A stretch of 64,000 nt of DNA from Hyphomicrobiales bacterium (GTDB taxonomy: Bacteria; Pseudomonadota; Alphaproteobacteria; Rhizobiales; CBDCVD01), in the NCBI GenBank assembly GCA_965222955.1, contig OZ244974.1, forward strand, positions 1,920,226 to 1,984,225. The letters run 5' to 3'. Made by a program: the position numbers and the translations under genes. Positions 2,339 through 60,036 of this stretch are shown here, in pieces. The notes under the pieces are model-generated. The model saw only the letters and a program-made list of their open reading frames with translations, ran no database searches and was not told the origin of the DNA. The first letter of the stretch is position 1, and every line of letters starts with the position of its first letter.

Positions 2339-2929
2339 GTGAAATTTTTGCGTGGCATTCTTGTGTGCGTTACAGGATTGGTTCTGCTTGCCGGCTGCGG
2401 CCTCGAATCGATACGCAAGCTCGGCGGAGAGACCAGTTCACCGGATATGAGCAGGTGGGAAAAAACCGCCAATAAAGGATTTCTTTCCTATAGCTGCCAA
2501 AGTTGCAGTGAGGCGGGCGCCGTCGTGCTGTATCGCAGTATCCATGTGGGACCGGACCTGAGCGCGGAGAATTCCCGCGAGGCGATTATCTCGTCCATGA
2601 GTACCGCCTTGACGCCCGGCGCCGTGAAACTGGAAAATGAAAAGGGCCAGGCCGTATTAACCCAGGCGTTTTCCTCCCTGACCGTTGCCGGTCACAAGGG
2701 ATTGCTCGGGCGTTATCACTACGCCCCTGCCGATACCACGGGCGAGAATAACGCCGGCAGCGGTTCCGGCGATGGCGCCGCGCCGTCTTCGCCGGCGCCG
2801 GCTGTGGGCTATATGTTCCTGATACCGAGCGGTGAGACACTTTTGATTTTGCAATCGGTCGCCGCCAATAAAGAAGATGCAGCAAGGTACTTACGCGAAT
2901 TTGCTGCCAGACTGGATAAACTGGCGTAA
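2339..2929 (+). CDS. Hypothetical lipoprotein
   Basis: GTG start preceded by aggaaag. The signal peptide carries the lipobox LLAGCG. No recognisable domain. It sits where purQ is usually found. Confidence 0.6.
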   Translation: MKFLRGILVCVTGLVLLAGCGLESIRKLGGETSSPDMSRWEKTANKGFLSYSCQSCSEAGAVVLYRSIHVGPDLSAENSREAIISSMSTALTPGAVKLENEKGQAVLTQAFSSLTVAGHKGLLGRYHYAPADTTGENNAGSGSGDGAAPSSPAPAVGYMFLIPSGETLLILQSVAANKEDAARYLREFAARLDKLA

Positions 2930-2930
2930 T

Positions 2931-3263
2931 AGAGCGTGTCAGGTCTTGATAGAACCATTCTGACGGAGCGATTTTGCGACAAGGCCAAGCAAAGTCTCGC
3001 AGGATATAGTGGGGCTGTTTGCAAGAGACTTAAGGTTCGTATTGGATCAGCCTGGCGTTAGCTGTACCCGTCTTGCCAGGGGCAATGCTAACGCCATAAA
3101 GCGATTGCCCTGAAATCTATAGCAAAAGCGCCCGTCCCTTCGGGTTTGCCGATTGGCGGACGCCCACACCCAAGCCGCTCTCGAGAGATGGATAAACATC
3201 GCTCTTCGATCGCCTTGAGCCTGGGTATCGCCTCGCCAATCGGGAAACGAAAATTGCTTCAGT
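2931..3263 (-). repeat. Family D MITE-like element, long form, one terminus missing
   Basis: It starts with the TIR agagcgtgtcaggtcttgatagaa. The interior is the reverse complement of 23236-23509. It carries an extra roughly 75-bp hairpin insert at about 3047-3122. The far TIR is replaced by an R98 copy. Confidence 0.8.
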
Positions 3264-3367
3264 TATACCAGCGGTATTGGCGTTTTGTACACGCTGACTT
3301 GTGTATAGTGTTGATAAGACAACGGTTTTAAGCCAAGTCAGGAGTCAAACGCAAAGCCCCTTGGTAT
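3264..3367 (+). repeat. R98 element, single copy
   Basis: tataccagcggtattggcgttttgtacacgctgacttgtgtatagtgttgataagacaacggttttaagccaagtcaggagtcaaacgcaaagccccttggtat. Confidence 0.9.
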
Positions 3368-3441
3368 TAAAAACTGAAAAGCTCCAGAAGCCCGACCTGG
3401 GTGGTGGGTGCGGGCCAGGTTTCCTGACTGAATGGGAAAAA

Positions 3442-3495
3442 GTTGAATGTGAAAAAGTCCCTCGGCTTCGCCCCGGTCCACTTTTCCCATTCAAC
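3442..3495. repeat. Family B hairpin element
   Basis: gttgaatgtgaaaaagtccctcggcttcgccccggtccacttttcccattcaac is a near-perfect palindrome. Confidence 0.85.
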
Positions 3496-3867: not shown

Positions 3868-5289
3868 TTAACCGCTGATCAGACCGCGCCTGCGCGCCTC
3901 ATCCAGTTCGGCCTGGGTAACCTCGCTTTCGTTGAGGTACCGGTCATGATATTCCGCCAGATCCAGACCGATCAATTCAATTTCAGCGGGAATTCTGAGC
4001 ACACCCATACGCTTGAGAACCGAAGCCAGTATAAATGACGGCAAAAAGCCCAGCACGCCAAACATGATAACCGCGCCAGCGAACTGTCCCCACGGGGTAA
4101 TCGACGCCGCATCCACGCCCCCCATTGCCGCCGGGTGTCCCCAAAGCATAAAACCGGCAATAACCAGGCCGATAAAGCCCGCATAGCCATGTACCGCGAC
4201 CGCACCGACAGCATCATCAATCATAAAGCGCCGCTCTATCCAGTTATGCAGCTTGTACGCGCTGACAGCGCCAATACCACCGATAAACATCGACTGAATC
4301 GGATGATACAGATCGTTTCCGGCAGAGGCGGCAATAATCCCCGCCAGACCGGCCGAATACGTCCAGAATGCATCGCCGCGTGATACGATATACCCCGCAA
4401 CAAGGCCGCCCGATAATGACATTAAAAAGTTGAACACGATCGCCGACAATGTCGTCGGGGTCAGATAGATGGTCGTGGCCGTATAGCTCGTGCCCTGGGC
4501 ACCAATATCGCCCGCGCCGATGATCGGCACGTTGCAGGCAACATAAAATCCCCAGAAGCCCGTATAGATCAAAAACAGACCGACCGTCACAAGCCACGGG
4601 TTATGGGGAACAATGTTGCGCGGCGTGCCGTCTTCGCGAAACTTCCCGATGCGGGCCCCAAGGGGAATAAGAACCCCTAATGCGGCGCCTCCGGCAATCG
4701 CGTGAATCACGCCCGAAGCATAGGCATCATGATAGCCCAGCAGCTTTACCATCCAGCCATCGTAGTGCCAGCCCCAGGCAGCGTCGATGATCCATGTGAA
4801 CGAACCCACCAGAACAGCAATCAGCCAGAACGCGCCAGAACGGATACGCTCAATCACGGCGCCCGAAACAATTGACGCGGCGGTCCACGAAAACAGCAAG
4901 AACGCAGCCCAGAACACGCCATTAATGCGTGCCCAGAAAGCGTTATCGTCAGCCGTTGTGGTAGCCGTTTGCGGGGCGCCACCCAGATGCGTGCCCATTA
5001 ACTCCGACCACGGTACCGCGTTCGGTGCGTCGATCAACCCTTGTCCCTTGTAAATAAACGGACCATTGGGGAAAGCAAAATAAATCCACCAGCCAAAGAA
5101 GAAAAATGTAATCGTCACCAACGGGATCAACATGGTGTTCTTCATTAGCGTATGCATCATGTTCTTGGTACGGGAAGCTCCGACTTCGTACATGCAAAAG
5201 CCTACGTGAATCAAAAACATCAACGGCACGGTTACCCAATAGTAAAACTCGCTGAAGATAACCGTCAGTGCACCGATATCGGTATCCAT
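3868..5289 (-). CDS. amt: Ammonium transporter (Amt/MEP/Rh family)
   Basis: 473 aa and polytopic. Motifs include VHAIAGGAALGVLIPLGARIGKF and AVAVHGYAGFIGLVIAGF. GGAGG lies 5 nt upstream of the ATG. Confidence 0.9.
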   Translation of the reverse strand: MDTDIGALTVIFSEFYYWVTVPLMFLIHVGFCMYEVGASRTKNMMHTLMKNTMLIPLVTITFFFFGWWIYFAFPNGPFIYKGQGLIDAPNAVPWSELMGTHLGGAPQTATTTADDNAFWARINGVFWAAFLLFSWTAASIVSGAVIERIRSGAFWLIAVLVGSFTWIIDAAWGWHYDGWMVKLLGYHDAYASGVIHAIAGGAALGVLIPLGARIGKFREDGTPRNIVPHNPWLVTVGLFLIYTGFWGFYVACNVPIIGAGDIGAQGTSYTATTIYLTPTTLSAIVFNFLMSLSGGLVAGYIVSRGDAFWTYSAGLAGIIAASAGNDLYHPIQSMFIGGIGAVSAYKLHNWIERRFMIDDAVGAVAVHGYAGFIGLVIAGFMLWGHPAAMGGVDAASITPWGQFAGAVIMFGVLGFLPSFILASVLKRMGVLRIPAEIELIGLDLAEYHDRYLNESEVTQAELDEARRRGLISG

Positions 5290-5428
5290 ACGTTCCTCCC
5301 TTTCACCTCATTATTATGCGCGTATGTCGTTTGCCGTCCTTCGGGTCAGGAACAATATGACGACTGGCTACGGACAGTCATTTTCGGGTGATACGCGCTT
5401 TGCCACCCGTCCGTTATCAGAGCCATTT

Positions 5429-5817
5429 TGCACAGCCAATGCACGTTTATGCGCCGATTCATCGAAAACGTGCCCCCCCTACATGTGACGCTCGTGGAAC
5501 GCAATTGACATTTGGGTCCCGTTTGCCGCCGGGGGCGCAAATGTAGAAATCGAACCATTAACAGGTGCCTAACAATTATCTTACTGTTATTCAACAATTT
5601 CCATGTGCAGGAAATCTCTCCCATGGCGCTTTTATCGCCGCTTGAATGTCGTTTTGCCGCAACATCACGCCGATTGGAAAACATAATTTACGGACCACGC
5701 GAAGCGTTCTGCACAACCAGCGCACGTTCATGCTCAGATTGGTTGAAAAGCATGCGCCGGTGTTATTTGTGACATCAATATGTGTCTAACAATTATCTTA
5801 CTGTTATTCAACAATTT
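5429..5817 (+). repeat. Two-block direct duplication in the amt upstream region
   Basis: The 32-bp block ctaacaattatcttactgttattcaacaattt is identical at 5569-5600 and 5786-5817. A related block starts tgcacagccaatgcacgtttatgc at 5429 and tgcacaaccagcgcacgttcatgc at 5710. Confidence 0.8.
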
Positions 5818-6140
5818 TGATGCACAGGAAACGTATCCCGTAGCGTTGTTGACCCATTTTGGCACAATGCCACTGCCGTTGAAACAACACAATCGTATCG
5901 GGGCTCGTTGCGGTGCGGGATTGAAGCCTCCCATCGCAGGAGGTTCTGAGGAGCAAAACGCACTTGGCGAGCGCGCCTTGCATATGGGTCTGGATGGAGC
6001 CGATGGGGTTCGGCGAGGCAGGTGATTCTTGACACACAGGCGGTATCGCCGTCTGTTTGTGATGGAATCGGTTGGTTTGGCGGTTTTTGGCGGACAGGCC
6101 CTTGATGCCGGCGGGATGATTGATGCACGCTGATGCGCGC

Positions 6141-6373
6141 TAGAGCCTTTCAGCAGGTTGTTCCTGAGGCAGGCAAACCGGAAGGGGGTACCTCTTGCGC
6201 CATTGCCCCCAGGATGGCCACCTGCACCCGACAGGTTTACCAGGGACAACCTGTACCTGTCAGGTGCGGATGGATGGCCGGGTATGGCCATCCTTGCGGC
6301 CCTTGCGGCCCTTGCCGCCAGGGTGGCCTTCAGACCTGTCCGTCCCGGGCATAACCTGCTGAAAGATCACAAC
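6141..6373. repeat. Family C MITE-like element, full form
   Basis: Outer arms are tagagcctttcagcaggttgttcctgaggcagg and cctgtccgtcccgggcataacctgctgaaagatcacaac. The inner palindrome is cacccgacaggtttaccagggacaacctgtacctgtcaggtg. Confidence 0.85.
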
Positions 6374-6470
6374 TCGCCATGATAACGTTCTCGTGGCCCT
6401 TTGAATGTGACCTGACACGCTCCAGAACGAGGCCAGCGGCAACGGGGACGCAAATGTCACATGTGTTTCG

Positions 6471-6674: not shown

Positions 6675-6904
6675 GGGGACCTCATTTTCCTGTGTTGGTT
6701 GTAAGAGCGCATTTTAACCCGCTGTTGCTACACTATCGCCAAATGTATCGCTGGCGGCGTGTCTGGCGGCTGAACGCCCGCCTGCGTGGGGTATGCGCCG
6801 GATAAATGTCGCACCTTAGCGCGATTTTTGCAAACGTTCAATCGCTTCATCGACGGCATCTGTGAAGATCCTGGCGCCTGGCAGGGGAGGGGGGTTGCTA
6901 CTTT

Positions 6905-6963
6905 AGGGCGTACATGTATTGATAGAAATGAAAATTGCTTCTATTAAGGACATGATACGCTCT
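6905..6963. repeat. Family D mini element (TIRs only)
   Basis: agggcgtacatgtattgatagaa ... ttctattaaggacatgatacgctct, flanked by the inverted ctacttta / taaagtag. Confidence 0.7.
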
Positions 6964-6974
6964 AAAGTAGCATT

Positions 6975-9467
6975 GTGGCGCAAGGGGGAGCGGTTGTGCC
7001 GGAGTCCATGGGAGAGAAATACAGGGAGGTCATGGCCCTTGCCGGTCATGTGAACGGCGCATCGGATGGTGTGCGTACACTTTGGCTTGGCTTTCTCGCC
7101 TTTATGACGTTTCTGGCTCTGGCGGTGTTTGGCACCACCCACGAGGATTTGTTTCTTGAGACGCCTCTGGCGCTGCCGCCGCCGGTATCCGTTGAGATCA
7201 ATCTATGGGGATTTTACTTCATTGCGCCGCTTATTCTGGTGGTGATTCACGGCTATCTGTTGTTAAAGCTGCTTTTTCTCAAATACGTTTATGATGACTT
7301 CGAGGCGCAGGTCAGGAAAGATATTGGCCTTCGTATTGACAGAGTGCAGGCGCGCAAGCACTTGAACATCACCCTTTTTACGCGCGTTCTCATGTCCCTT
7401 GGCGGTTTTATCAGTGACGCGCCCTTGAACGGGGCGGAATGGAGACGCCGTTATACTGTTCGGGTGGCGACGCTGTTTTTGGCGGTGACGGTGATCGTAC
7501 TCCCATTGAGCGCGCTGCTGTTTATCTGGATAAGGTTTCTGCCCTATCAGTATGAGGCGGCGACCCTGTGGCACCGGGTTTTGTTCGCCATCGACATGAT
7601 CGCCATTGTCTGGGCGGTATGGATGATTGCCGGTTTTCGCCTTCTGGCGCGGATGTGTCTTGTCCTGTTTGTTTTATTGATTCTAGCTGCATTATCGATA
7701 CGCCATGACGTAATCGGTCGTCTTGTTCAGTTTGCTCAGAAGGGAGGGGAAATGCCGGACTGGCAGCAATGGCTGATTGTAGTCATCCTCTTCGCTATTG
7801 TTCTCGCGGGTATCGTTTTTCGAAAGTTACTTGGAAATGTGATTCGTTATATTTTCAAGATTGTCGAACGCGTTTGGACTGATTTTGTAGCTCTTCTGTC
7901 CGATGGATTCCGGCACTTTGCGGAACAGTCTTTTTCGTATTTTGTCAAAACGATGGGGTTGTTTTTCATTTTCTGCGGTCCGGCGCTGGTTGTTTTGCCG
8001 GCGTGGTTCCTGTTTACCTTTCCACGGGAGTGCTTGCAGGATGATCGAAAATGGGATGATGGGCGCTATCAATGGACTGGCGGCGAGGCGTGGTGCTGGG
8101 ACAGGAATGCCGTCTCAACGGGACTTGTCGATACACTCAAATTGCGGCGTATCACAGACCGCAAGCGTAGCACAGATGGTAAGGAGGCTCCAAAAATGGA
8201 CTTTGGTACGGATGCCCTTCTTTGGCCACCGGTGACGCTGAACGTGGCATCGCAACAGATTGTTTATCATCGCTTTGTGCGTGAGCAGGGCGGTGACCTG
8301 ACGGCGTTAAAACGCACCCTGAATTTGGAGGGCCGTTCTTTTGTCGGCGCTGATCTGCAGGACGTGGACTTGCGAAAAGCCTATCTGGTTGGCGCTGACT
8401 TACGCGGCATCATCGGTAAAAACCTGAACCTGAAAGGCGCAGCATTGCAGGGGAGCCACCTGCAGGCGGCGAATATGCGGGAGGCCGAACTGCAGGGGGC
8501 GGATTTGCTGTTTGCTAACCTGCAGGAGGCGGAATTGTGGGAGGCCCAGCTGCAGGGGGCGAATTTGCGGTCGGCCCGCTTGCAGGGGGCGAAGTTGGGT
8601 TCTGCCCGCCTGCAGGGGGCGAATTTGCGGGGTGCTAACCTGCAGGGGGCGGATTTGCTGTTTGCTAACCTGCAGGGGGCGGATTTGGAGGGTGCCCAGC
8701 TGCAGGGGGCGGATTTGCTGTTTGCTAACCTGCAGGGGGCGAATTTGGAGTGGGCTGAGCTGCAGGGGGCGGATTTGGTGGGTGCCCACCTGCAGGGGGC
8801 GGATTTGCTGTTTGCTAACCTGCAGGGGGCGAATTTGGTGGGTGCCTACCTGCAGGGGGCGCTAATGTACAAAACGGCCCTGTGGCGGGCGGAACCGCCA
8901 GGGGACCTAAAGGGCGTAACAGGTGTTGCGCTGGACTTTACCCCCCTGAACAATGCCGCAAGCCAGATAAGTGCATGGCTGAAAAACGTGCCTGATGGAG
9001 ACGAAAAAGCAGCAAATGGAAACACAAAAAAAGCAGCAAAAGAACGCCTTGAAGTGCTGACGCGCAGTGCGAAACAACAGGACAAGGAAAACAAAAAGCG
9101 CTGGGAGGCTCAGACGGCCATCAACATCTCCGATTCAGAGGAGCGCAACAAGGCCATAGATGATCATTTAAAGGCGCAATATGACATATATAAAGCGCTC
9201 TTGTGTCCCCCAGGTGACCAGATCGGCGATGAACGCAAAAATTTCCTGGTCGAAACCGATGCCATCGCCACAGCCGTGACAGAGCGATGGTCACTAATTT
9301 TGCAGTTACGCAAAGCGTCGCTCAATGTCCAGGCAAGCGCCGTCGAAAAATTCTTGTACGAGCTGGCTTTTAAAACACTCCAAACCTATAGCAAGCTTTT
9401 GCAACATATCCGCGCCTGCCGGGCGGAAAAGCCCGCCACGGCCAACACCGCGGTAACCAACGAATAA
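6975..9467 (+). CDS. Polytopic membrane protein with a C-terminal pentapeptide-repeat domain
   Basis: 830 aa. There are about 7 hydrophobic helices in the first 390 aa. About 190 aa of A(D/N)LxG-type pentapeptide repeats follow (ADLQDVDLRKAYLVGADLRG ... ANLQGANLVGAYLQGA). The protein ends in a Lys/Glu-rich helical tail. The start is uncertain: GTG 6975 or ATG 7008. Confidence 0.75.
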   Translation: MAQGGAVVPESMGEKYREVMALAGHVNGASDGVRTLWLGFLAFMTFLALAVFGTTHEDLFLETPLALPPPVSVEINLWGFYFIAPLILVVIHGYLLLKLLFLKYVYDDFEAQVRKDIGLRIDRVQARKHLNITLFTRVLMSLGGFISDAPLNGAEWRRRYTVRVATLFLAVTVIVLPLSALLFIWIRFLPYQYEAATLWHRVLFAIDMIAIVWAVWMIAGFRLLARMCLVLFVLLILAALSIRHDVIGRLVQFAQKGGEMPDWQQWLIVVILFAIVLAGIVFRKLLGNVIRYIFKIVERVWTDFVALLSDGFRHFAEQSFSYFVKTMGLFFIFCGPALVVLPAWFLFTFPRECLQDDRKWDDGRYQWTGGEAWCWDRNAVSTGLVDTLKLRRITDRKRSTDGKEAPKMDFGTDALLWPPVTLNVASQQIVYHRFVREQGGDLTALKRTLNLEGRSFVGADLQDVDLRKAYLVGADLRGIIGKNLNLKGAALQGSHLQAANMREAELQGADLLFANLQEAELWEAQLQGANLRSARLQGAKLGSARLQGANLRGANLQGADLLFANLQGADLEGAQLQGADLLFANLQGANLEWAELQGADLVGAHLQGADLLFANLQGANLVGAYLQGALMYKTALWRAEPPGDLKGVTGVALDFTPLNNAASQISAWLKNVPDGDEKAANGNTKKAAKERLEVLTRSAKQQDKENKKRWEAQTAINISDSEERNKAIDDHLKAQYDIYKALLCPPGDQIGDERKNFLVETDAIATAVTERWSLILQLRKASLNVQASAVEKFLYELAFKTLQTYSKLLQHIRACRAEKPATANTAVTNE
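8455..8870 (+). repeat. Coding tandem repeat (30-bp unit) within the pentapeptide domain
   Basis: Reiterated ctgcagggggcggatttgctgtttgctaac (LQGADLLFAN) with minor variants. A CTGCAG occurs at each unit. Confidence 0.9.
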
Positions 9468-15611: not shown

Positions 15612-16203
15612 TTATACCAGCGGTATTGGCGTTTGTACGCGCTGACTTGTGTGTCGTGCTGATAAGACAACGGTTGTAAACCGGGTCAGGAGTCAAACGC
15701 AAGTCCCTTGTATGCCAGCGGTATTGGCGTTTGTACACGCTGACTTGTGTGTCGTGCTGATAAGACAACGGTTGTAAACCGGGTCAGGAGTCAAACGCAA
15801 GTCCCTTGTATGCCAGCGGCATTGGCGTTTGTACGCGCTAACTTGTGTGTCGTGCTGATAAGACAACGGTTGTAAACCGGGTCAGGAGTCAAACGCAAGT
15901 CCCTTGTATGCCAGCGGTATTGGCGTTTGTACGCGCTAACTTGTGTGTCGTGCTGATAAGACAACGGTTGTAAACCGGGTCAGGAGTCAAACGCAAGTCC
16001 CTTGTATGCCAGCGGTATTGGGGTTTGTACGCGCTGACTCGTGTGTCGTGCTGATAAGACAACGGTTGTAAACTGCGCCGGGAGTCAAACGTAAGTCCCT
16101 GTATACCAGCGGTATTGGGGTCGGTACGCGCTGACTTGTGTGTCGTGCTGATAAGACAACGGTTGTAAACCGGGCCAGGAGTCAAACCAAAGCCCCCTGG
16201 TAT
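15612..16203 (+). repeat. Tandem array of 6 head-to-tail R98 units (period 97-99 bp)
   Basis: Unit starts (tat[ag]ccagcgg) are at 15612, 15710, 15809, 15907, 16005 and 16102. The units abut with no unique spacers. Confidence 0.95.
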
Positions 16204-18116: not shown

Positions 18117-18415
18117 ATACCAGGGGGCTTTGCGTGTGACTCCTGGCTCAGATTAAAACCGTTGTTTTATCAGCACGATACACAAGTCAGCGTGTACAAA
18201 ACGCCAATACCGCTGGTACACAGGGACTTACGTGTGACTCCTGGCTCAGATTAAAACCGTTGTCTTATCAGCACGATACACAAGTCGGCGTGTACAAAAC
18301 GTCAATACCGCTGGTATACAGGGACTTACGTGTGACTCCTGGCTTGGTTGAAAACCGTTGCCTTATCAGCACGACACACAAGTCAGCGCGTACAAAACGC
18401 CAATACCGCTGGTAT
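18117..18415 (-). repeat. Tandem array of 3 R98 units, inverted relative to 15612-16203
   Basis: Three consecutive reverse-complement units, each ending ...gtacaaaacg[ct]caataccgctggta. Confidence 0.95.
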
Positions 18416-18458
18416 CAGTCCGCCGGGTTGCCCCAGGGACTGATTTGTCCTTGGTGTT

Positions 18459-18510
18459 CACTGGGAAAAAGCAGACCGAGGCGAAGCCGAGGGACTTTTT
18501 CACATTCAAC
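18459..18510. repeat. Family B hairpin (with the longer left extension from about 18420)
   Basis: cactgggaaaaagcagaccgaggcgaagccgagggactttttcacattcaac. The upstream ccgccgggttgccccagggactgatttgtcc is shared with the copies at 58941 and 33996-34038. Confidence 0.85.
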
Positions 18511-18585
18511 GCAATACATCGTATTGCCCGGTGCCTGATGCGGATACCGCTGATACAACGGCCTGCGAACGGTTATGAGGTCACC

Positions 18586-25827: not shown

Positions 25828-26973
25828 TCAGCGCAGGGGCGGTACGCCAAAACCGTTGATACGATCCAGTCGTTCCAGATTAACGACGCTTGAGAGCATG
25901 AGCCGGTCATGACTCCATTCCGAGGGCCGCGAGAACGCCGTAACAACCACCACAATCAGGGAAATCAGCGAAACGGCGAGCAGGGTGTCAAGATAACGAT
26001 TGCCGCTGTTGCCCAATCGTCCATCATTTGCGCTCCGGTTCGATAGTGCCAGAACCCGCCGCCCCAACGCGCTTTTTTTAAAGCCCCGCGGAGAGCGCCC
26101 CGAACGCCCCGGATCAAGCCCAAAGAGTGGTACGCTCATGGCGCCCAGGCGCGTATTCCGGGGAGAAGCAGCGGCCCTTGTTGCCAGTTCCAACAGCAAC
26201 AGGGCGTAGCGCCTTGGGTGGAAATTTTTTCGCGCAAGAAACGCCGCATCGCAACTGTATTCGCGATAGCGGCGGATCCTGTCCGAGATGAACCAGAAAG
26301 CCGGATTGAGAACCAGCAGCGGAGAGAGCAGTGACAATAGAATTTCCCAATCCACATCCCGCTGCCGAATATGCTGTATTTCGTGTCCCAGCGCCATGCG
26401 CATCGCCTCGCGATCGGATAAAAATGTGTCCGGTAGAACGATGTGGTATCTGGTCAGCCCCCGGCTTGAAAACGCGATAGTAATACGATTCGAGACCAGA
26501 ATGTTCAGCCTGCCACACGAACGCAGCGGCCTTGCATTGGATACGATTTTTATCAATCGTGCGGCGCTTATAGCGACGTAGCCGGCGCGCAGCAGCCCTG
26601 CAAGCGCCAGCGCGGCAGCCAGAACCAGCGAAGAGGGTGATGAAAGACCTGTAAGGTTGTCCATCAGGCTGTTTTTCGCCGTGAGCAGCTCGGCAAGCTG
26701 TGTTGCCGAAATGGCGATGTTGCCCTTCAGGTATTGCGCCACGACGACATCGGTGACATTGACGCCGAAAGACAATTTTGCGGGCGCGATTATCGGCAGC
26801 ACGACAAGGGATACAAAGGCGGCGCACAGTGCAGCGATCGACAGGTTCAGCCGCAGTTTATAGGCGTATCGCAAGCGGGTATGTTTTAGGGCGTATTCAG
26901 CGGTCCACACCGCCAGAAACGAAGCGATCATGATAAAATTGAGCACCAGCAAGAGTTCCAGAACCCTGCCCAT
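25828..26973 (-). CDS. M56-family (BlaR1-like) membrane metalloprotease/signal transducer
   Basis: HEIQHIRQRD zinc motif between TM helices. It lies immediately downstream of a BlaI-type repressor gene. No penicillin-binding sensor domain is apparent. Confidence 0.8.
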   Translation of the reverse strand: MGRVLELLLVLNFIMIASFLAVWTAEYALKHTRLRYAYKLRLNLSIAALCAAFVSLVVLPIIAPAKLSFGVNVTDVVVAQYLKGNIAISATQLAELLTAKNSLMDNLTGLSSPSSLVLAAALALAGLLRAGYVAISAARLIKIVSNARPLRSCGRLNILVSNRITIAFSSRGLTRYHIVLPDTFLSDREAMRMALGHEIQHIRQRDVDWEILLSLLSPLLVLNPAFWFISDRIRRYREYSCDAAFLARKNFHPRRYALLLLELATRAAASPRNTRLGAMSVPLFGLDPGRSGRSPRGFKKSALGRRVLALSNRSANDGRLGNSGNRYLDTLLAVSLISLIVVVVTAFSRPSEWSHDRLMLSSVVNLERLDRINGFGVPPLR

Positions 26974-26975
26974 AC

Positions 26976-27365
26976 CTACCTCCCGATTTTTGTATCGATA
27001 ATGTCCCTTATTTCCCTGATCATCTCCTCGCTCAGTTCCTCGTCGTCGACGAGGCGGGCGACGAGAGCGGTTGGCGCGCCGTTAAAGAGCGTGTCCGAAA
27101 GGCTTTTGAGCGATTTGCCTTCATACGCCTGCCTGTCGAGGGTTGGCGCGTAGATGAGCGTGCCGTCGGGTTTTTCCGCGTTCAGATAGCCTTTTTCCTG
27201 CAGGACTTTCAGGACGGTTGCCACCGACGTATAAGCGCGTGTTTCCTTTTGATTGAGGATATCCAGAACTTCGCGTACCGTGCCGGAGCCGATGTCCCAG
27301 AGCACTTTCATGAATTCGAGCTCAACGGACGTCAATAACTCGCTTTTTCCCTTGGGCCTGGGCAT
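26976..27365 (-). CDS. BlaI/MecI/CopY-family transcriptional repressor
   Basis: 129 aa. LTSVELEFMKVLWDIGSGTVREVLDILNQKETRAYTSVATVLKVLQEKGYL is a winged-helix pattern. Confidence 0.85.
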   Translation of the reverse strand: MPRPKGKSELLTSVELEFMKVLWDIGSGTVREVLDILNQKETRAYTSVATVLKVLQEKGYLNAEKPDGTLIYAPTLDRQAYEGKSLKSLSDTLFNGAPTALVARLVDDEELSEEMIREIRDIIDTKIGR

Positions 27366-27605
27366 TCAGAGTTTTCCATGGTTCTGGCGGGACGGCCGCT
27401 ATCAACGGGTTTAAGTCTGGCAGCTGTTTAATTGCAGCAGGTTGTTCCTGGCAAACGCATCGGGTAAAGATGACCGTTCATCTGATCATGGCGCGAACCG
27501 GCCTCCCAGTGGTTCCATTAACACCCGTGGTTCTATTAATAAGTGACCCACAGCGCGCAGACAAGGGCAAAATCGGATCGCGCGATCATCCCCGTGGCGG
27601 ATAAT

Positions 27606-28027
27606 GCGTTGATCGTGAAGAAAGGTGCTTCGCTCCGCTCAGCGCACTTTTCTTCATTTAAAACAATGAGAAAGCAACGATTAGGAAGGCGCGGCGCTTT
27701 GTTTTCCCCTGGGCTTGTTGCAAGGTTTTGGCGCATTTGCGCGTAAAGCCCGGGTGTCGCCTTTCAGTAGGTTGTTCTCGAAATCTCCGTCGGGTGCTGC
27801 TGGCCATTCATCTGATCATTAGAGATGTCACGTCCGGTTTGCCTGTACCGGGAACAACCTGCTGGAAGATCACAACCAGGGGGCTTTGCGTTTGACTCCT
27901 GGCCCGGCTTACAACCGTTGTCTTATCAGCACGACACACAAGTCAGCGCGTACAAAACGCCAATACCGCTGGTATTGTTGGGAAAAAGTGGACCGAGGCG
28001 AAGCCGAGGGACTTTTTCACATTCAAC
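27606..28027. repeat. Pile-up of four abutting repeat families (E, C, R98, B)
   Basis: E is at 27606-27746, C at 27754-27876, R98 (minus orientation) at 27875-27975, and B at 27977-28027. Confidence 0.85.
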
Positions 28028-28049
28028 TAATACCTCCCGCCGAAGCGCT

Positions 28050-29438
28050 TTAAAAGCTGTCGGTAGTCGTAAAGTCACCGCCACCACCGCCGAAGCCACC
28101 GCCGAATCCGCCACCGCCGCCAAACCCGCCTGGCCAGCCCTGGTCATCGTCCCAGTGGCGCCGCCGCCAACGCTGATCCTCGCGCATACCGTCCCAGTAC
28201 GTGCCGCTGTTGATCATCCCTTTTAGAAACTCGCCCAGCAAAACGCCGGTCATGGAACCAAAGACCGAGCCGTAATCATCAAACCGGCGGCGCTTGAAGC
28301 GATCACGAACATGCTCCAGTTCGCTGCGTTTTTCGCCGATTGCCTGCAAGCGCTGCTCTTCGCTGTGTTTTTCGCGCTCTACATGGTCCGATTTGGCGCG
28401 GATCGACTGAATACGTGCGACAATACGGTCATCGTCCTGCGATTGGGTGCGCCGGGCACGCCGGTAGAGTTGCGCAACCGGCTCTTGCGCCACCACTGCC
28501 TGAAGTTGCGCCAGCCCGTCAGAATAGGCGTCATCCTCCCCCTTTGCCAGGTCAGCGCGCGCCTGGCGAAGACGCGCCAGGTCTTGCGTAACCGCATTGA
28601 TGCGGGCATCGATCACCTCCTTTTCCGCCCGCAACCGCTCCACGTGAGCCACCATCTCTCCCTGGCCGATTTCCTTTAAAGCCTGCTCCTCGGCAGCCGC
28701 CAGCGCCTTCGCCTGCTCCCTGGCCAGCGTTCGCATGCGTTGTGCATGGGCGCCAAGGCGTTTCGGAATTTCGTTGAGCATAAAGTAATTCGCCCGCGCT
28801 TCGGCATAGCCCACCAGTCGCGCCACCCAGCCATCGAGCAGGCGGACCAGACCGCCGCCCTTGTAGGTACTGGTGCCATAGGCGTTGTTCCACAGGTACA
28901 TGAACAGGGGATCGGACTGGTACCGCTCGCCCTTGGCAAGTTGATCGGCTTGCGCCTGAACGATTTTTTCCTCTGCCGCATCGGCCCGCCTGGTCGCTGT
29001 ACGGGCGGTCTCGGCCGATCTCCTGTAGACCGGATGACGCATCAACTCATCGCGCATGCCGATAAGTTCGTTATCGAGGCGCTCCTCGGCGTCCTCAAGC
29101 TGCGAAGCCGTTTCCTCTCGCCGGGTGTTCAGTTGCGTCAGTTCGCTCTCACCCGCGCTGACACCCGTTTCGGTTTCGTCGTATCGCTGCGCATGGGCCA
29201 ATATCAACCCGGCAGCGTGGCGTTCGGCGCGCGAAAGTGTATCGACAATGTCGCCGCGGGTAATCGCCTCCGCCCGTACCTCGGCGAGGGCACGATATTC
29301 GATGGCCAGTTCCTGGCCGAGACGGATCAACTGCTCGCTTAATGTGCGCAGGCGGGCGCTTGTTTCGCGTTCGTCATGCTGAATTTGTCCGACCGCCTTG
29401 TCGATGGAGCCAAGGGTGTCACGACCACTGGTAAACAT
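28050..29438 (-). CDS. Coiled-coil protein with a glycine-rich C-terminal tail (third gene of the TelA-like operon)
   Basis: About 462 aa from ATG 29438, with GAGG 4 nt upstream. Long heptad-like regions. A conserved-looking block reads DPLFMYLWNNAYGTSTYKGGGLVRLLDGWVARLVGY. The tail is GWPGGFGGGGGFGGGFGGGGGDF. Confidence 0.6.
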   Translation of the reverse strand: MFTSGRDTLGSIDKAVGQIQHDERETSARLRTLSEQLIRLGQELAIEYRALAEVRAEAITRGDIVDTLSRAERHAAGLILAHAQRYDETETGVSAGESELTQLNTRREETASQLEDAEERLDNELIGMRDELMRHPVYRRSAETARTATRRADAAEEKIVQAQADQLAKGERYQSDPLFMYLWNNAYGTSTYKGGGLVRLLDGWVARLVGYAEARANYFMLNEIPKRLGAHAQRMRTLAREQAKALAAAEEQALKEIGQGEMVAHVERLRAEKEVIDARINAVTQDLARLRQARADLAKGEDDAYSDGLAQLQAVVAQEPVAQLYRRARRTQSQDDDRIVARIQSIRAKSDHVEREKHSEEQRLQAIGEKRSELEHVRDRFKRRRFDDYGSVFGSMTGVLLGEFLKGMINSGTYWDGMREDQRWRRRHWDDDQGWPGGFGGGGGFGGGFGGGGGDFTTTDSF

Positions 29439-29495
29439 GGGACCTCGCATGGTTCAGTATCGGCAACGCAGCGGTTGGCGCGAACGGGATGCCGT

Positions 29496-30470
29496 TCACC
29501 ACGCGGTGATCGAACCGCCGCCAACGCCGCGGGAATATTCGGGCGCTAGTCTGCCCAATCGCTTGTGACCGACAACAGCGTTGTTGACGATACCATCGGC
29601 CAGTTTGTCGGTGCGCACGGCGTCGAACACGCGCTTTTCGACGCGGATGCCCCACTTTTTCACGTGTTCGGCGGCGCTGCTTTCGTCATTGCGAATGGGA
29701 ACGCTAAGCGCCTTACCGTCGGCGTCCAGCGCCTCGACGATGAGATAATGCGCCTTGCCCCCCGATGTATGAGTGCGCTCAAGGCCGCTTTTCTCGCCCG
29801 AGCGGGAAACGATGCGAATGGTATATTCCTGTTTGAGCTGCGCCAGCAGGGCGGTGAGTTTGGTGATCTGCTCTTGCGCTGCGGTGCTGTTCTCGTTTCT
29901 GGCCGCTGCAATTCCGGCATTCGCCAGGGCGGCGGCGCGGGTGAGGGCTTCCTCGTCTCTGGCGATCGCCGAGATTTGTGCGCTCAGGGCCTCGATCTGT
30001 TTTGGCATCTGCTGCGTAACAGCAATACGCGCTTGGGTTTCCTGATAGCTGTTATAGCGGCCAACGGCAAACAGGGCGGCAACGGCCACGACGCCGGCAA
30101 GGGCAACGATGGCAACTTTGCGGCCCCACTGATGGCGCGTGACATAGGCGTGGGCGAGGGTGCGGCGCAGGCCTGACGCGGGCGGGGTATAGGTAAAGCG
30201 ATCCTCTTTCAGTGCCGCCACCCCATCCGCAATGACATGATCGGGAACCTCGATCCCCTGTTTGGCATAAACGGCGCGCAGACGCTCGACGAGTTGATGC
30301 TCGCGCGCTTCTTCATTGAGTTCGCGCTCGACCAGTTTTTCCTCGTGGCGCAGGGTATCGACCACGTCCATGGCAAGCATTAACTCATCGAGGCCGATTT
30401 TATCATTGCGTGCCGCGCCCGTCCCGGCTGTGACAACGCCTGTGGACGCATCGGCTGTGATATCCGCCAT
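29496..30470 (-). CDS. Single-pass membrane protein of unknown function (second gene of the TelA-like operon)
   Basis: 324 aa. N-terminal helical region (LMLAMDVVDTLRHEEKLVEREL), one TM helix (VAIVALAGVVAVAALFAV), a coiled coil, and a C-terminal beta-looking domain (YTIRIVSRSGEKSGLERT...HYLIVEALDADGKAL). Confidence 0.6.
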   Translation of the reverse strand: MADITADASTGVVTAGTGAARNDKIGLDELMLAMDVVDTLRHEEKLVERELNEEAREHQLVERLRAVYAKQGIEVPDHVIADGVAALKEDRFTYTPPASGLRRTLAHAYVTRHQWGRKVAIVALAGVVAVAALFAVGRYNSYQETQARIAVTQQMPKQIEALSAQISAIARDEEALTRAAALANAGIAAARNENSTAAQEQITKLTALLAQLKQEYTIRIVSRSGEKSGLERTHTSGGKAHYLIVEALDADGKALSVPIRNDESSAAEHVKKWGIRVEKRVFDAVRTDKLADGIVNNAVVGHKRLGRLAPEYSRGVGGGSITAW

Positions 30471-30508
30471 GTGGTTATTCCTCGTAACGTCGCCCCCGGG
30501 CGTTTCGG

Positions 30509-30657
30509 TTGTGATCTTTCAACAGATTGTTGCAAGGACGGGCAAATCCGAAGCGATCCCTGGTGCGGCCCTTGCCGCAGATGGCGAGCAGCAAGACCAT
30601 ACCGGGTCATTCATCTGATCATCGCTTTTTTCGAAAACAACCTGTTAAGGGTTACAA
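30509..30657 (+). repeat. Family C element inside the TelA-like operon spacer
   Basis: ttgtgatctttcaacagattgttgcaaggacgggcaaatccgaag ... attcatctgatcat ... cgaaaacaacctgttaagggttacaa. Confidence 0.85.
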
Positions 30658-30856
30658 ACCTGGTGGTTCGATTCCAATATTTGCACCTTCCAAGCGCAGC
30701 CTTGCATGCACATGCCGCAATCAAGATTCCACTGGCAGCGCCATATCGTCAACGCACGTCACGCGAAACCGCTTCCGCCTGATCGTCCGTAGGGCATCAC
30801 CGCGCCGGGCTTGTCGACGTTCTCCCTTACGCTTCTCCGCTGGCCATGGCCGATCC

Positions 30857-32041
30857 TCAGGCGGACAGATCCAGAACAAGCGCGTTGCCCTCGGAGGCCA
30901 GGCGCGCCAGCCGTTGTTTGCCATCTTCCACGGCTACGCGAATTTCCTTTGAGTTCTCGGTGGCGAGAACGCGCATTTCGTTGATGATTTCGCGCGAGCG
31001 TTCCTGGAAGTTGACCACCGAATCGACCAGCTTTTGAACCGATTCCGCCCGCACAGTGGGGCCATAGCCCGCCCTGATGGCCTCTTCCTGCACCGCATCG
31101 CCAATCTCGGCCAGGGTTTCGAGACTTTTCGAGACACCCTCTTTCATGGCTTCCAGGGTCTGGGTGGATTCGTGCAGGCCATGCAAGCCGGTAAAGCTGG
31201 CTTTAAGCGCCGTCAGAACGGTCTCGTTGGTGGAGAAGAAGCTGATTGCCTGCGCATAGACCCGCTCCTTGGCGTTGGTCGTCTGCATTAAGCGCGCCAT
31301 GACAACCTCCGACGTATTGTAGCCGATGGTCAGGTTGTCGGAGAGGTCCTTGGCGATCTGGTAGCGTTTTTCCTCGTCCTGCATGGCGCGCACCTTTTCA
31401 TCGCGCGCCATTTCCAGGCGCGCCCGGGCGGCCGCATCGCCGTCCTGGGATGATGCGATCTCTTTATTTGCCTGGTCCAGAAGTCCCTTGGCGTTCTCCA
31501 GTTTTTTCTCCGCCTGTTCCAGCACTTCAAACGCCAGCACCTCGGACTGTTTCAGGGCGCCGCGAAAATCCGCATAAGATTCCAAAATCGTATGTTCGCG
31601 TTCGATCTGCTCCTTGGTATCGCGGGCGACATCGAGATAGGTGCCGCGGATGGCATCGAAACGTGCCGCGACATCGCCGCGCGTGACTTTCATCCATACA
31701 TTGGAAAGCCGCTCGAAGGTCGAGATGGTGCCGTCTTCGAGCTGATCGACCATGGATTTGGCGTCTTCGCGGATGGAATTGAATGCGTCGGTGATTTCTT
31801 CGTAACGCTGGCCGATATTCATGGCCTCGATCTGATTGCGCACCACATCATTAAAGACGCTTTGCTGGTTGAGGGTGCGGGCAATGGCGAGTACGCGGTC
31901 CTGATCGAGATCGGATATTTTCTCCAGCAGCGGAACAATCGGTTGCTCCTGCACTGTTTCCGGCATCAGCCCGAGTTCGCGCAGCGAGCCAAGGGCCTTG
32001 TCGAGATATTGCATCGGCTTTAGGGCCATATCTGAGTTCAT
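30857..32041 (-). CDS. TelA-like (toxic anion resistance family-like) protein, distant
   Basis: 394 aa, all-helical. The segment YQIAKDLSDNLTIGYNTSEVVMARLMQTTNAKERVYAQAISFFSTNETVLTALKA aligns by eye with the TelA/YceH core (L.LSRQI.IQ.AP.IRLIQ..N..L..KI...I...IPLWK.Q...AL). Confidence 0.45.
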   Translation of the reverse strand: MNSDMALKPMQYLDKALGSLRELGLMPETVQEQPIVPLLEKISDLDQDRVLAIARTLNQQSVFNDVVRNQIEAMNIGQRYEEITDAFNSIREDAKSMVDQLEDGTISTFERLSNVWMKVTRGDVAARFDAIRGTYLDVARDTKEQIEREHTILESYADFRGALKQSEVLAFEVLEQAEKKLENAKGLLDQANKEIASSQDGDAAARARLEMARDEKVRAMQDEEKRYQIAKDLSDNLTIGYNTSEVVMARLMQTTNAKERVYAQAISFFSTNETVLTALKASFTGLHGLHESTQTLEAMKEGVSKSLETLAEIGDAVQEEAIRAGYGPTVRAESVQKLVDSVVNFQERSREIINEMRVLATENSKEIRVAVEDGKQRLARLASEGNALVLDLSA

Positions 32042-32176
32042 GGGGATTACTCCGAACGATTAAAACGATTGAATTAGGTCGAAAGGGTCAAACTTGCCGT
32101 ACAACCGGCACCGGACCGGCAGTTTCGAATTTCATGAAGCCGCAGCAACACGCCCGTGCCCCGGGCGGTTGGACCA

Positions 32177-32279
32177 ATACCAGCGGTATTGGCTTTTGTA
32201 CACGCTGACTTGTGTATCATGCTGATAAAACAGCGGTTTTTAAACCAAGCCAGAAATCACACGCAAAGTCCCTTGGTAT
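32177..32279 (+). repeat. R98 element, single copy
   Basis: ataccagcggtattggcttttgtacacgctgacttgtgtatcatgctgataaaacagcggtttttaaaccaagccagaaatcacacgcaaagtcccttggtat. Confidence 0.9.
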
Positions 32280-32433
32280 AAACGCTCCTTACCTTGCCAC
32301 ATATGAAAACGGAATCCAATATTTATAGCCGATTTTATCCCGCCGGTTAGCGCTTGCCAAGATTCGCTGTATGATGTGTTGCCGCGTCTCCCGGGCGACT
32401 GCTCCCGGTACGGCATGCCAGCCCGGCCCTTTC

Positions 32434-33670: not shown

Positions 33671-34297
33671 TGTGATCTTTTAGCAGGTTGTTATCGGGAC
33701 GGGCAAATCTGGAGGGATACCTGGTGCGGCCCTTGCCGCAGATGGTGGCCAGCAGCACCCGATGGGTTTTCGAGAACAACCTGTTGAAATTACACATCCA
33801 ACTGCCGCTTTCAGTAATACGCGTTTACATAACAATCGCGCCAGGCGCAATTATTGTCGCGTTCGGGATGTTGTTGAGAGCAGGGCCGCAAAGCCGCCCG
33901 GTCGCCTGACCGGCCGAGCCCGTCGCCGGTTGTGTAGTTTCAACAGTTGAATTTGAAAAAGCCCCTCGGCTTCGCCCCGGTCCACTTTTTCCCAATAAAA
34001 TAAGGACAAATCAGTTCCCGGGGCGGCCCGGCGGACTGATTTGGCATTAAAACCTTGCAATAAAGCCCAAGCGAAAACAAAGCGCCACACCTTCCTGAGC
34101 GCTGTTTTCTCATTGTTTTAAATGAGGAAAAGTACACGCAAGCGGCGCGAAGCACCTTTCTTCGCGATCAACTCAACAGGGTGTTGCCGAAAAAACCATC
34201 AGATGGATGGTGGGGTATGGCCTCCCTGACGGCAAGGGCGCAAGAGATGTACCTTCAGACGTGCCTGTCCTGGACACACCCTGTTGAAAGGTCACAA
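33671..34297. repeat. Pile-up of repeat families (C, B-long, E, C)
   Basis: C is at 33671-33797, B with extension at 33946-34038, E (minus orientation, truncated) at 34045-34172, and C (inverted) at 34172-34297. Confidence 0.85.
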
Positions 34298-34338: not shown

Positions 34339-34950
34339 CTACGCCGCCTGCTGGCGGTCCCGGGCGAGTTTGGCGCGGGCACGCGCCATAAGGGCATCGA
34401 CGGGCTCATGGGCGACCGCGGTAGCGGTGCCGACGGCGATACGAATATCCATGGGCGGCAGCCCTTCGAGTTGCGTCTGCGCCTCGATTTCGCGCTTTAT
34501 CTCACCGGCGCGACGCTCGCAGTCGAACTTTTCCGCATACCACAGAATAACCGACAGCTCATGCTTTTCCGTTCGTCCGATGATATCGGAGGTGCGTACG
34601 CGTTGCCGCAGGCCATCAGCGATCTGCGCCAGAACCTGCAGCGGAATATCGGCGCCATAGACCTGCTCAAGATGATCGATCTGCAGCAACTCGATGGTCA
34701 GAACGGAGACCGGAATATCGTGCCGCTTCATCAAGGCACAGGCGCGGGTGAGTTCTTCGAAAAACGCCGTCACACTGATCGCACCGGTCGCGCTGTCGTG
34801 GCGGGCGTCCTCCTCGATTTCCGTCAATGTGAGCCGCAAGTCCTCGGAACTCTCCGCAAGGGCGTTGTATTTGGCCAAAAGGTCCTCGAACTGCTCGCGA
34901 ATACCGGGGGGCAATCCGCTCAGATCATCCCGATCATGCTTTGCATTCAT
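34339..34950 (-). CDS. Stand-alone degenerate GGDEF-domain protein
   Basis: 203 aa. The GGDEF-domain topology is recognisable (TGAISVTAFFEEL...SVLTIELLQIDHLEQVYG...RTSDIIGRTEKHELSVILW). The position of the GG(D/E)EF signature reads TEKHEL. Confidence 0.6.
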   Translation of the reverse strand: MNAKHDRDDLSGLPPGIREQFEDLLAKYNALAESSEDLRLTLTEIEEDARHDSATGAISVTAFFEELTRACALMKRHDIPVSVLTIELLQIDHLEQVYGADIPLQVLAQIADGLRQRVRTSDIIGRTEKHELSVILWYAEKFDCERRAGEIKREIEAQTQLEGLPPMDIRIAVGTATAVAHEPVDALMARARAKLARDRQQAA

Positions 34951-38631: not shown

Positions 38632-38735
38632 TATACCAGCGGTATTGGCTTGTTGTACACGCTGACTTGTGTATCGTGTTGATAAGACAACGGTTTTTAA
38701 CCAAGCAAAGAGTCAAACGCAAAGGCCCTTGGTAT
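38632..38735 (+). repeat. R98 element, single copy
   Basis: tataccagcggtattggcttgttgtacacgctgacttgtgtatcgtgttgataagacaacggtttttaaccaagcaaagagtcaaacgcaaaggcccttggtat. Confidence 0.9.
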
Positions 38736-58751: not shown

Positions 58752-59029
58752 CTGTTGATCGTGAAGAAAAGTCCTTTGCTCCGCTTGCGTGTACTTTTCT
58801 TCATTGAAGCAATGAGAAAACAAGGTTCAAGAAGGTGCGGCGCTTTGTTTTCGCCCGGGCTTATTGCAAGGTTTTGGCGCATTTGCGCGTAATACCTTGC
58901 AATTTCCGATCATGATCGGTTCCCATGGGTGTCAAATCGATCCGCCGGGCTACCCCAGGGACTGATTTATCCCTATTTTATCGGGAAAATTAGACCGAGA
59001 CGAAGCCAAGGGACTTTTTCACATTCAAC
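58752..59029. repeat. Repeat cluster (family E, then family B long form)
   Basis: E is at 58752-58892, ending ttgcaaggttttggcgcatttgcgcgtaa. B-long is at 58941-59029. Confidence 0.85.
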
Positions 59030-59108
59030 TACTCCGTGATCGCCTTATCCCGATTTGTCACCCGTCAGCCTACGCCAACGGAACATACGTGTTTTGGAAT
59101 GTCCGCCC

Positions 59109-59894: not shown

Positions 59895-60019
59895 GTTGAA
59901 TGTGAAAAAGCAGACCGAGGCGAAGCCGAGGGGCTATCTCACATTCAACGGTTTAAAACCATTGTCTTATCAGCACGATACACAAGTCAGCGTGTACAGA
60001 AAGCCAATACCGCTGGTAT
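59895..60019. repeat. Family B hairpin fused to a truncated R98 copy
   Basis: B is at 59895-59949. A 3'-truncated R98 (minus orientation) is at 59950-60019. Confidence 0.85.
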
Positions 60020-60036
60020 AAGACGCGCCGGAGAGA

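Follow-up and report, generated by a model that had tools for sequence, protein, structure and literature searches.

What do three adjacent genes without a housekeeping assignment do together, and is their adjacency more than an accident of one genome? The question is raised by a stretch of 64,000 nucleotides from a Hyphomicrobiales bacterium (contig OZ244974.1 of assembly GCA_965222955.1; the whole stretch is termed here the window), which carries three co-oriented open reading frames (ORFs) on its minus strand. We name them g1, g2 and g3 in their order of transcription and refer to them jointly as the triad. g1 (30857-32041) codes for an acidic, all-helical protein of 394 amino acids (aa) that is cytoplasmic and lies outside the Pfam TelA family (PF05816), g2 (29496-30470) for a 324-aa DUF6384 protein predicted to span the inner membrane once, and g3 (28050-29438) for a cytoplasmic coiled-coil protein of 462 aa. 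An earlier note, drawn from the letters of the DNA and their translations, had located the three ORFs at these positions, and they are present as it described. We find that the triad is a single conserved unit that travels between chromosomes, megaplasmids and a jumbo phage, and we tentatively read it as a membrane-anchored complex built around a very remote relative of TelA.

The gene calls require one choice. The longest version of g3 starts from an ATG at 29450 and has 466 aa. The start at 29438, which the earlier note had used, is the better one because it has GAGG 4 nucleotides (nt) upstream and because the amino-termini of homologues align from this Met. The initiation codon of g2 is preceded by GAGGA at 8 nt. 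With either start the exact g3 protein had no match in the protein collection. There is no cysteine in the three proteins, which count 1184 residues together.

A conserved and mobile three-gene unit

The distribution of the triad was surveyed by searching a DUF6384 alignment against one genome per species, which gave at least 583 confirmed stretches. Synteny was read in 83 loci, 80 kept from this survey and three found on Desulfobacterales contigs. g1 lies directly upstream of g2 in all 83 and g3 directly downstream of g2 in 79, the other four being contigs that end 119-499 bp past g2. The order g1-g2-g3 is kept in every locus long enough to show all three genes. The triad is one conserved unit whose grouping goes far beyond chance, as the earlier note had supposed. 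The note had framed this co-occurrence as a matter of the Alphaproteobacteria, a restriction that turned out to be wrong: loci are found in Alpha-, Beta- and Gammaproteobacteria, Desulfobacterota and Bdellovibrio. By record title they come from Devosia, Maritalea, Rhodobiaceae, Hyphomicrobiaceae, Rhodospirillales, Thiodiazotropha, Sedimenticolaceae and Chromatiales, as well as from a Hydrogenophaga metagenome-assembled genome (MAG), Desulfobulbaceae, Desulfobacterales and a Bdellovibrio MAG. The spread amounts to at least several hundred species. Compared with the window proteins, identity drops along the operon, from 62-72% for g1 (full-length matches) to 40-48% for g2 and 28-36% for g3, g1 being by far the most constrained of the three. 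No conserved flanking genes were identified around the triad; its neighbours vary by lineage and show lineage-specific synteny only. The BON-LysM, DUF1269, DUF533 and rhomboid genes located beside a Desulfobacterales copy, for instance, do not recur at the other loci.

The earlier note did not recognise the triad as a described system, and our searches agree. Full-text searches found, within the literature library that was covered, no paper for DUF6384 or PF19911, and no discussion of the triad genes under the phage gene names or under "merozoite surface protein 3b". Scans of the triad proteins with NCBIfam, PADLOC and PHROGs gave no usable match: the NCBIfam matches were weak and far below cut-off, and PADLOC-DB 2.0.0 returned sub-threshold matches only (g2 with PD-T4-6, E-value (E) 0.0046; g3 with the JetC coiled coil, E 0.0025), so that assignment to a known anti-phage defence system of that database was rejected. 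Sequence searches of the PDB, with single proteins as well as with profiles, yielded coiled-coil or Gly-linker noise only.

The triad is also mobile, its genes being inherited and transferred together. It is carried by a 398-kb IncP megaplasmid of Pseudomonas aeruginosa, where a type IV CRISPR gene lies 7 kb away, by pMPPla107 and by a megaplasmid of M. extorquens AM1 (Methylorubrum). At least g1 and g2 are present on five further Pseudomonas megaplasmids and on plasmids of Microvirga, Bradyrhizobium and Rhizobium leguminosarum. The complete triad is also encoded, as genes g190-g192, by phiR1-37, a jumbo phage of Yersinia with a genome of 262 kb; scans of viral contigs for the triad found only phiR1-37 itself. 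Its g190 product is 42% identical to g1 across 97% of the length, g191 matches DUF6384 (E 4.7e-26), and g192 aligns over the conserved block of g3 with a profile built from g3 sequences, the Pseudomonas copies among them (hhalign probability 89%, E 2e-6). The note "phage structural protein" used in the phiR1-37 record is attached to none of the three genes. Upstream of the triad, at a distance of a few genes, both pMPPla107 (4704-5465 of locus L093) and phiR1-37 (g187; 5857-6468 of locus L100) have a metallophosphoesterase gene, a hint that a larger block is common to the plasmid and phage copies. In pMPPla107 a gene for a StiP-domain cysteine protease is also found near the triad.

The phage provides the one available expression data set. 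Mean gene reads at early, middle and late times of phiR1-37 infection are 32.7k, 39.0k and 42.0k for g190, 13.9k, 14.6k and 16.0k for g191, and 16.3k, 20.9k and 24.4k for g192 (PMC4848604, Table S2). All three genes are classed as not regulated, with strong constitutive transcription across infection, and the level of g190 is reached by just two among the first 83 phage genes listed in that table (PMC4848604, Table S2). The g1 homologue is the most transcribed of the triad in these data.

The three proteins and what they may build

g1 has more than 8000 close homologues, about 70% identical across Hyphomicrobiales, and the 62-72% identity given above holds across phyla; the full HMMER scan collected 612 cluster representatives down to ~28% identity. 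The protein has neither a transmembrane segment nor a signal peptide (maximum 19-residue hydropathy 0.84) and is uniformly acidic, with an isoelectric point (pI) of 4.8. Its AlphaFold2 (AF2) model, with a predicted local distance difference test (pLDDT) score of 67.6, is all-helical, as the earlier note had anticipated. Long helices span residues 124-197, 203-284 and 332-393, and the distal region 281-331 is poorly predicted. The databases name g1 relatives "cell surface protein", but also "merozoite surface protein 3b" and "phosphoribosyl-AMP cyclohydrolase". The last two names show that the labels were propagated automatically, and no curated NCBIfam model backing any of them was found. That the triad is a set of secreted or surface-exposed proteins, as the name "cell surface protein" given by NCBI and UniRef implies, is hardly credible for a g1 and a g3 that both lack signal peptide and hydrophobic segment.

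The earlier note had aligned g1 by eye with the TelA core. The Pfam TelA model detects neither g1 (E <= 1) nor any of 44 diverse g1 members (E <= 0.1), while an RK2-type KlaB used as positive control scores 3.2e-86; by this standard test g1 is therefore not a member of the TelA family. A remote relationship was suggested by profile-profile alignments. A TelA reference alignment was built from plasmid genes, and its first profile, of seven sequences, aligned with g1 end to end at E 0.067 and a probability of 0.8%, a score matched or exceeded by 7 of 40 block-shuffled controls. The profiles were then widened to 13 sequences for TelA, by adding six phage TelAs, and to 47 for g1, by adding the phage and plasmid copies. 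The signal grew: E 0.0014, probability 17.6% and score 34.3 over 332 columns, pairing g1 residues 14-384 with KlaB residues 18-370. None of 40 shuffled controls scored above 29.2 and the reversed control reached 19.0. The match remains below the usual acceptance threshold. In a Foldseek search of the g1 model against viral predicted structures (BFVD), ranks 5, 7, 15 and 22 went to TelA or "tellurite resistance" proteins; these matches are full-length and have a probability of 0.80-1.00, but E is 0.008-0.04 and the template-modelling (TM) scores are 0.28-0.36. The two comparisons support the earlier claim in a weak form, as a likely remote kinship and not as membership in TelA: g1 probably belongs to a family of its own, very distantly TelA-like. 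One remote g1 relative of 28% identity (80-1267 of locus L102) is followed by a gene (1641-2738) that matches none of the g1, g2 and g3 profiles and looks by eye like a glycosyltransferase; a wider g1 superfamily may also exist outside the triad.

g2 matches Pfam PF19911 (DUF6384) over its full length (E 3.1e-111; residues 23-324 with positions 4-308 of a 308-position model). A single transmembrane helix is predicted at residues ~118-140 (30051-30119, minus strand), where the Kyte-Doolittle profile calculated over 19 residues peaks at 2.73 (residues 119-137). The basic stretch RHQWGRK just before this helix places the amino-terminus in the cytoplasm by the positive-inside rule, and g2 is thus predicted to be a bitopic inner-membrane protein. 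The AF2 model (pLDDT 81.7 overall and above 90 over most of the periplasmic part) comprises cytoplasmic helices at residues 27-110, a membrane-crossing helix at 112-169, a three-helix bundle and a beta domain at 216-321, in agreement with the layout that the earlier note had described. Invariant columns are mostly found in residues 27-112, in the cytoplasmic domain (MLAMDVVDTLRH, QGIEVPDH), and the periplasmic part is basic (pI 9.4). Most genomes encode a g2 of 305-330 aa. The Desulfobacterales, Pseudomonas plasmid and phage copies are longer (424-492 aa), and the differences in length are due to the periplasmic helical region. When the model was compared with the PDB using Foldseek, only designed three-helix bundles and marginal ZinT/YodA-like barrels were retrieved and no fold was assigned to the periplasmic domain.

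g3 has 529 homologues at 29-37% identity. A Pfam scan of the protein and its homologues (38 members) gave no family, only coiled-coil noise. No membrane segment or signal peptide was identified (maximum hydropathy 1.18). A long amino-terminal coiled coil is followed by a conserved basic block (residues 171-240 in the 466-aa numbering; 28731-28940, minus strand), delimited by homologue alignment, then by a second coiled coil, a segment F.R..YD...S.F..LLG.FL.G...YW and a Gly-rich tail. The block has the motif KG..Y..DPLFMYLW...YGT..Y.....R.LDGWVA... and a pI of 9.9; K173, Y177, L182, F183, Y185, L186, W187, Y196, D206, V209, N221, L225, P229 and R231 are invariant in it. Both the core of this block (DPLFMYLW...LDGW) and the Gly/Phe tail, the two features singled out by the earlier note, are kept across 38 aligned homologues. 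The low-complexity tail and its carboxy-terminal tip (28053-28130, minus strand) were analysed in 120 homologues. The linker varies from 31 to 158 residues and has 34% Gly, while the tip reads F-x-T-G-G-x-F: F(-7) and T(-5) are found in 120 of 120 sequences, G(-4) in 116 and F(-1) in 118. Most homologues end with GGF[RK]TGGxF; the window protein ends with DFTTTDSF. In g3 of the phage and of the Pseudomonas plasmids Ser replaces Gly in the linker, and the ends are GFSSSDSF, GFSSSDSF and SFSTSDSL. A linker free in composition that leads to a fixed tip is the signature expected of a disordered tether carrying a docking peptide. The likeness to TPM/YgcG-type proteins suggested before is one of composition only, as g3 has no TPM domain and no membrane helix.

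How might these proteins work together? We infer a membrane-anchored assembly from the joint inheritance of the genes, the topology of their products, the graded constraint, the relative levels of transcript and the tethered peptide at the end of g3. The likely remote kinship with TelA, whose genes also ride large plasmids and phages (890 plasmid records and 168 phage records, many of them from jumbo phages), suggests a role in membrane integrity. Our favoured reading, to which we give somewhat less than an even chance, is that the triad forms a membrane-anchored complex around g1 that protects the envelope. g2 would be the anchor, its cytoplasmic domain recruiting the abundant, acidic and elongated g1 to the inner face of the membrane. 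g3 would act as a coiled-coil adaptor that uses its basic block and tethered peptide to dock on g1 or g2, much as the tails of FtsZ and SSB do, and could cross-link several units into a lattice close to the membrane. The periplasmic helical spacer of g2, of lineage-variable length, and its basic beta domain would reach towards the cell wall and so tie the assembly to the state of the envelope. The analogy with TelA operons suggests that the complex may keep the inner membrane intact under envelope stress caused by toxic anions, pore-formers or phage-related damage. Such a role would account for carriage of the triad by chromosomes, megaplasmids and a jumbo phage alike.

Several observations weigh against this proposal. 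Its TelA link is weak (the 17.6% profile probability, the E and TM scores of the fold matches and the only moderate pLDDT of the g1 model), and the analogy would predict a phenotype rather than a mechanism. The partners in known TelA operons (KlaA and KlaC, or XpaC) are unrelated to g2 and g3, the 28%-identity relative of g1 adjoins the glycosyltransferase-like gene instead of a triad, and no stress-related gene was seen consistently adjacent to the triad in the surveyed loci. The uniform acidity of g1 argues against direct binding to anionic lipids.

A more specific and doubtful, if possible, form of the same idea is a trans-envelope scaffold in which g1 lies on the cytoplasmic face, the DUF6384 anchor extends into the periplasm, g3 organises the ensemble through its terminal peptide and the TelA proteins are distant cousins. 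If true, it would be a new kind of bacterial membrane-associated assembly, spreading among chromosomes, megaplasmids and jumbo phages, and would also reveal a role for the TelA superfamily.

The triad could alternatively be a cytoskeleton-like or positioning scaffold without a role in stress, in which g1 polymerises, g2 anchors it as RodZ does MreB, and g3 tethers in the way of FtsZ, the whole organising the membrane or large replicons such as megaplasmids and the genome of a jumbo phage. The 62-72% identity of g1 across phyla is unusual for a helical protein without catalytic motifs and fits this explanation, as do the highest reads of g190 among the three phage genes, the occurrence of the triad on very large replicons and the combination of disordered linker and conserved tip, which is typical of tethered cytoskeletal partners. 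We regard it as unlikely, however, because no NTPase or known polymer fold was found with Pfam, NCBIfam or the PDB fold search, because most model bacteria lack the triad, which thus is not a core morphogenetic system, and because the kinship with TelA points elsewhere.

The fold search raised another possibility. The best PDB matches of the g1 model are the bipartite and tripartite alpha-pore-forming toxins of ClyA type (SmhB, AhlB, XaxA, YaxA and MakA), followed by chemoreceptors and F-BAR domains. g1 could then be a stored membrane-damaging effector, released or activated via g2 and g3, of a mobile-element conflict system (anti-phage defence, abortive infection or superinfection exclusion), and carriage of the triad by a phage and by megaplasmids, including the one with the nearby type IV CRISPR gene, would suit such a system. 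All these matches have E >= 0.02, however, and those to the toxins have TM scores of 0.33-0.43; g1 has no hydrophobic head, and the PADLOC matches of g2 and g3 are sub-threshold. The chromosomal copies are flanked by housekeeping genes and not by defence islands, and g1 evolves very slowly, contrary to the behaviour of conflict genes. Strong expression of the triad from the earliest time points by a lytic phage also fits poorly with a cell-killing effector, superinfection exclusion being still compatible with it. A conflict system is in our opinion quite improbable.

Expression signals, repeats and neighbouring genes

The spacer between g1 and g2 measures 386 bp (30471-30856) in the window, of which ~145 bp (30506-30650, without assigned strand) are a dispersed repeat. 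The earlier note had called it a miniature inverted-repeat transposable element (MITE), and a MITE-like nature is borne out by about ten related copies in the window, whose alignment shows inverted termini (AACAGGTTGTT ... AACAACCTGTT). Across 81 related loci g1 and g2 are separated by a median of 24 nt and by 227 nt at most, so that the gap of the window is the largest seen and the insertion is specific to this genome. No terminator-like site was identified between g1 and g2 on the coding strand of the spacer. As RNA the repeat forms a long hairpin, which lacks a U tract and is not significant against shuffles (z-score (z) -1.7), and an attenuator hairpin conserved at the g1-g2 junction was not found in other genomes (median z -0.6). 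Very strongly structured inserts occur at this junction in a Devosia MAG (168 nt, fold z -9.3; ~2838-3052 of locus L016) and in a Rickettsiales MAG (227 nt, fold z -11.0; ~6707-7001 of locus L018). Their sequences are unrelated, and phiR1-37 has an annotated terminator at the same place. Structured elements seem to be tolerated at this junction or drawn to it, and they could tune the g1:g2 ratio.

A candidate promoter (TTGGCA-17-TAAAAT; 32332-32360, minus strand) that keeps 10 of 12 consensus positions is found upstream of g1, and a candidate terminator, a hairpin with a U-rich tract (27961-27977, minus strand), 73 nt downstream of the g3 stop codon. The number of sites in the promoter and terminator scans equals the expectation from shuffles, which makes both of them weak evidence. 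No Rfam family was found in the region. The hairpin after g3 belongs to a ~100-bp repeat element, the second repeat family at the locus, which contains the palindrome CAATACCAGCGGTATTG (nine motif matches in the window against 0.01 expected). Copies of it bracket the operon in inverted orientation (27875-27977, minus strand, and 32175-32277, plus strand). Head-to-tail arrays are formed by six copies at 15614-16203 and by at least three at 18117-18421, and further copies are found at 3265-3370, 38633-38735 and 59949-60021.

Downstream of g3 and on the same strand, a BlaI-type repressor (Penicillinase_R, E 4.5e-27) and a BlaR1/M56-type membrane protease-sensor (E 3.2e-17) are encoded at 25828-27365 (minus strand), separated from g3 by 684 bp of repeats. 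The upstream neighbour of the triad is an aminotransferase gene. Neither this gene nor the BlaI/BlaR1-like pair accompanies the triad in other genomes. In the intergenic region between g3 and blaI (27366-28049), at least three additional families of short dispersed repeats form a mosaic, with 85-95% identity to copies elsewhere. One set of positions comprises 27605-27746, 34049-34175 and 58754-58892, and a second set 27979-28036, 18462-18520, 33945-33998, 3441-3488 and 58983-59031. The window is unusually rich in elements of the MITE type or resembling repetitive extragenic palindromes (REP). A short stand-alone GGDEF-domain protein of 203 aa (E 2.6e-13) is encoded at 34339-34950 (minus strand) with repeat elements on both sides.

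Comparison with known systems

TelA proteins have been known since the work on RK2 kilA, and TelA/KlaB is the closest reference for g1. The two have similar lengths (394 aa for g1, 362-390 aa for TelA), both consist of helices, their widened profiles can be aligned from end to end, although below the usual acceptance threshold, and the best fold matches of g1 include TelA models. Chromosomes, large plasmids and jumbo phages carry both TelA and the triad. They differ in that g1 and its relatives fall below the Pfam TelA model and that the triad has no known tellurite or envelope phenotype. The kilA operon of IncP plasmids (klaA-klaB-klaC/telB) resembles the triad in being a three-gene operon of helical cytoplasmic proteins and a membrane protein. 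However, KlaA is a short TelA paralogue unlike g2 or g3, while KlaC has 2-4 hydrophobic segments (four in two of the three copies read), no DUF6384 match and no BLAST similarity to g2 or g3. The XpaC-TelA (YaaN-type) pairs of Firmicutes, as found on a Clostridium butyricum plasmid, also combine a TelA-type helical protein with a membrane-associated partner, but this partner belongs to the XpaC family and not to DUF6384, there is no third coiled-coil gene, and XpaC is absent at the triad. Since the known TelA operons use KlaA and KlaC or XpaC as partners, the triad is not another kilA operon.

The PspA-PspB-PspC and LiaH-LiaI systems offer a parallel in the inferred arrangement of a cytoplasmic helical protein recruited by small bitopic membrane proteins. 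The triad differs from them by the lack of PspA/IM30 or PspB/C matches in Pfam and NCBIfam and of PspA/Vipp1 among the top 50 PDB fold matches, and g1 is acidic, without a basic membrane-binding face. Membership of g1 in the ESCRT-III-like PspA/IM30 group was discarded for want of both domain and fold match.

ClyA-family toxins (SmhABC, AhlABC, XaxAB, YaxAB and MakA) share with g1 an elongated bundle of long helices with a distal "head", and with the triad an organisation in two- or three-gene operons. The g1 matches to them are not significant, g1 has neither a hydrophobic head nor an export route, and g2 and g3 are not paralogues of g1: alignments of g1 with the g2 and g3 profiles gave coiled-coil noise. 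A tripartite toxin of this type was rejected on these grounds, together with the fold-match E, the hydropathy of g1 and its lack of a signal peptide.

The tail of g3 invites two further comparisons. The E. coli TPM-domain protein YgcG has a similar Gly-rich tail with an aromatic end (...GGFSGGGGSSGGGGASGRW), but in YgcG it is preceded by a signal peptide, a TPM domain and membrane segments, all lacking in g3, and the terminal motif differs. An identity of g3 as a TPM/YgcG-type protein was discarded, as there is no Pfam TPM match in g3 and 37 homologues and its maximum hydropathy is 1.18. FtsZ and SSB, with their tethered carboxy-terminal peptides, provide a parallel in architecture: g3 has a folded part, a low-complexity linker that varies in length and composition, and a short near-invariant end peptide with a final Phe. 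The C-terminus of SSB is ...DDDIPF. The tip of g3 has no sequence relation to either tail.

Compared with the known TelA operons the triad is a new variant, widespread and experimentally approachable. It represents a distinct and very strongly conserved branch with two partners of its own: an abundant helical subunit would be accompanied by an anchor and by an adaptor with a tethered peptide. Its presence in the culturable phage-host pair formed by phiR1-37 and Yersinia enterocolitica, where it ranks with the more strongly transcribed of the phage genes listed, makes genetics feasible. Working it out would give a function to DUF6384 and would put right two misleading labels, "cell surface protein" and "merozoite surface protein 3b".

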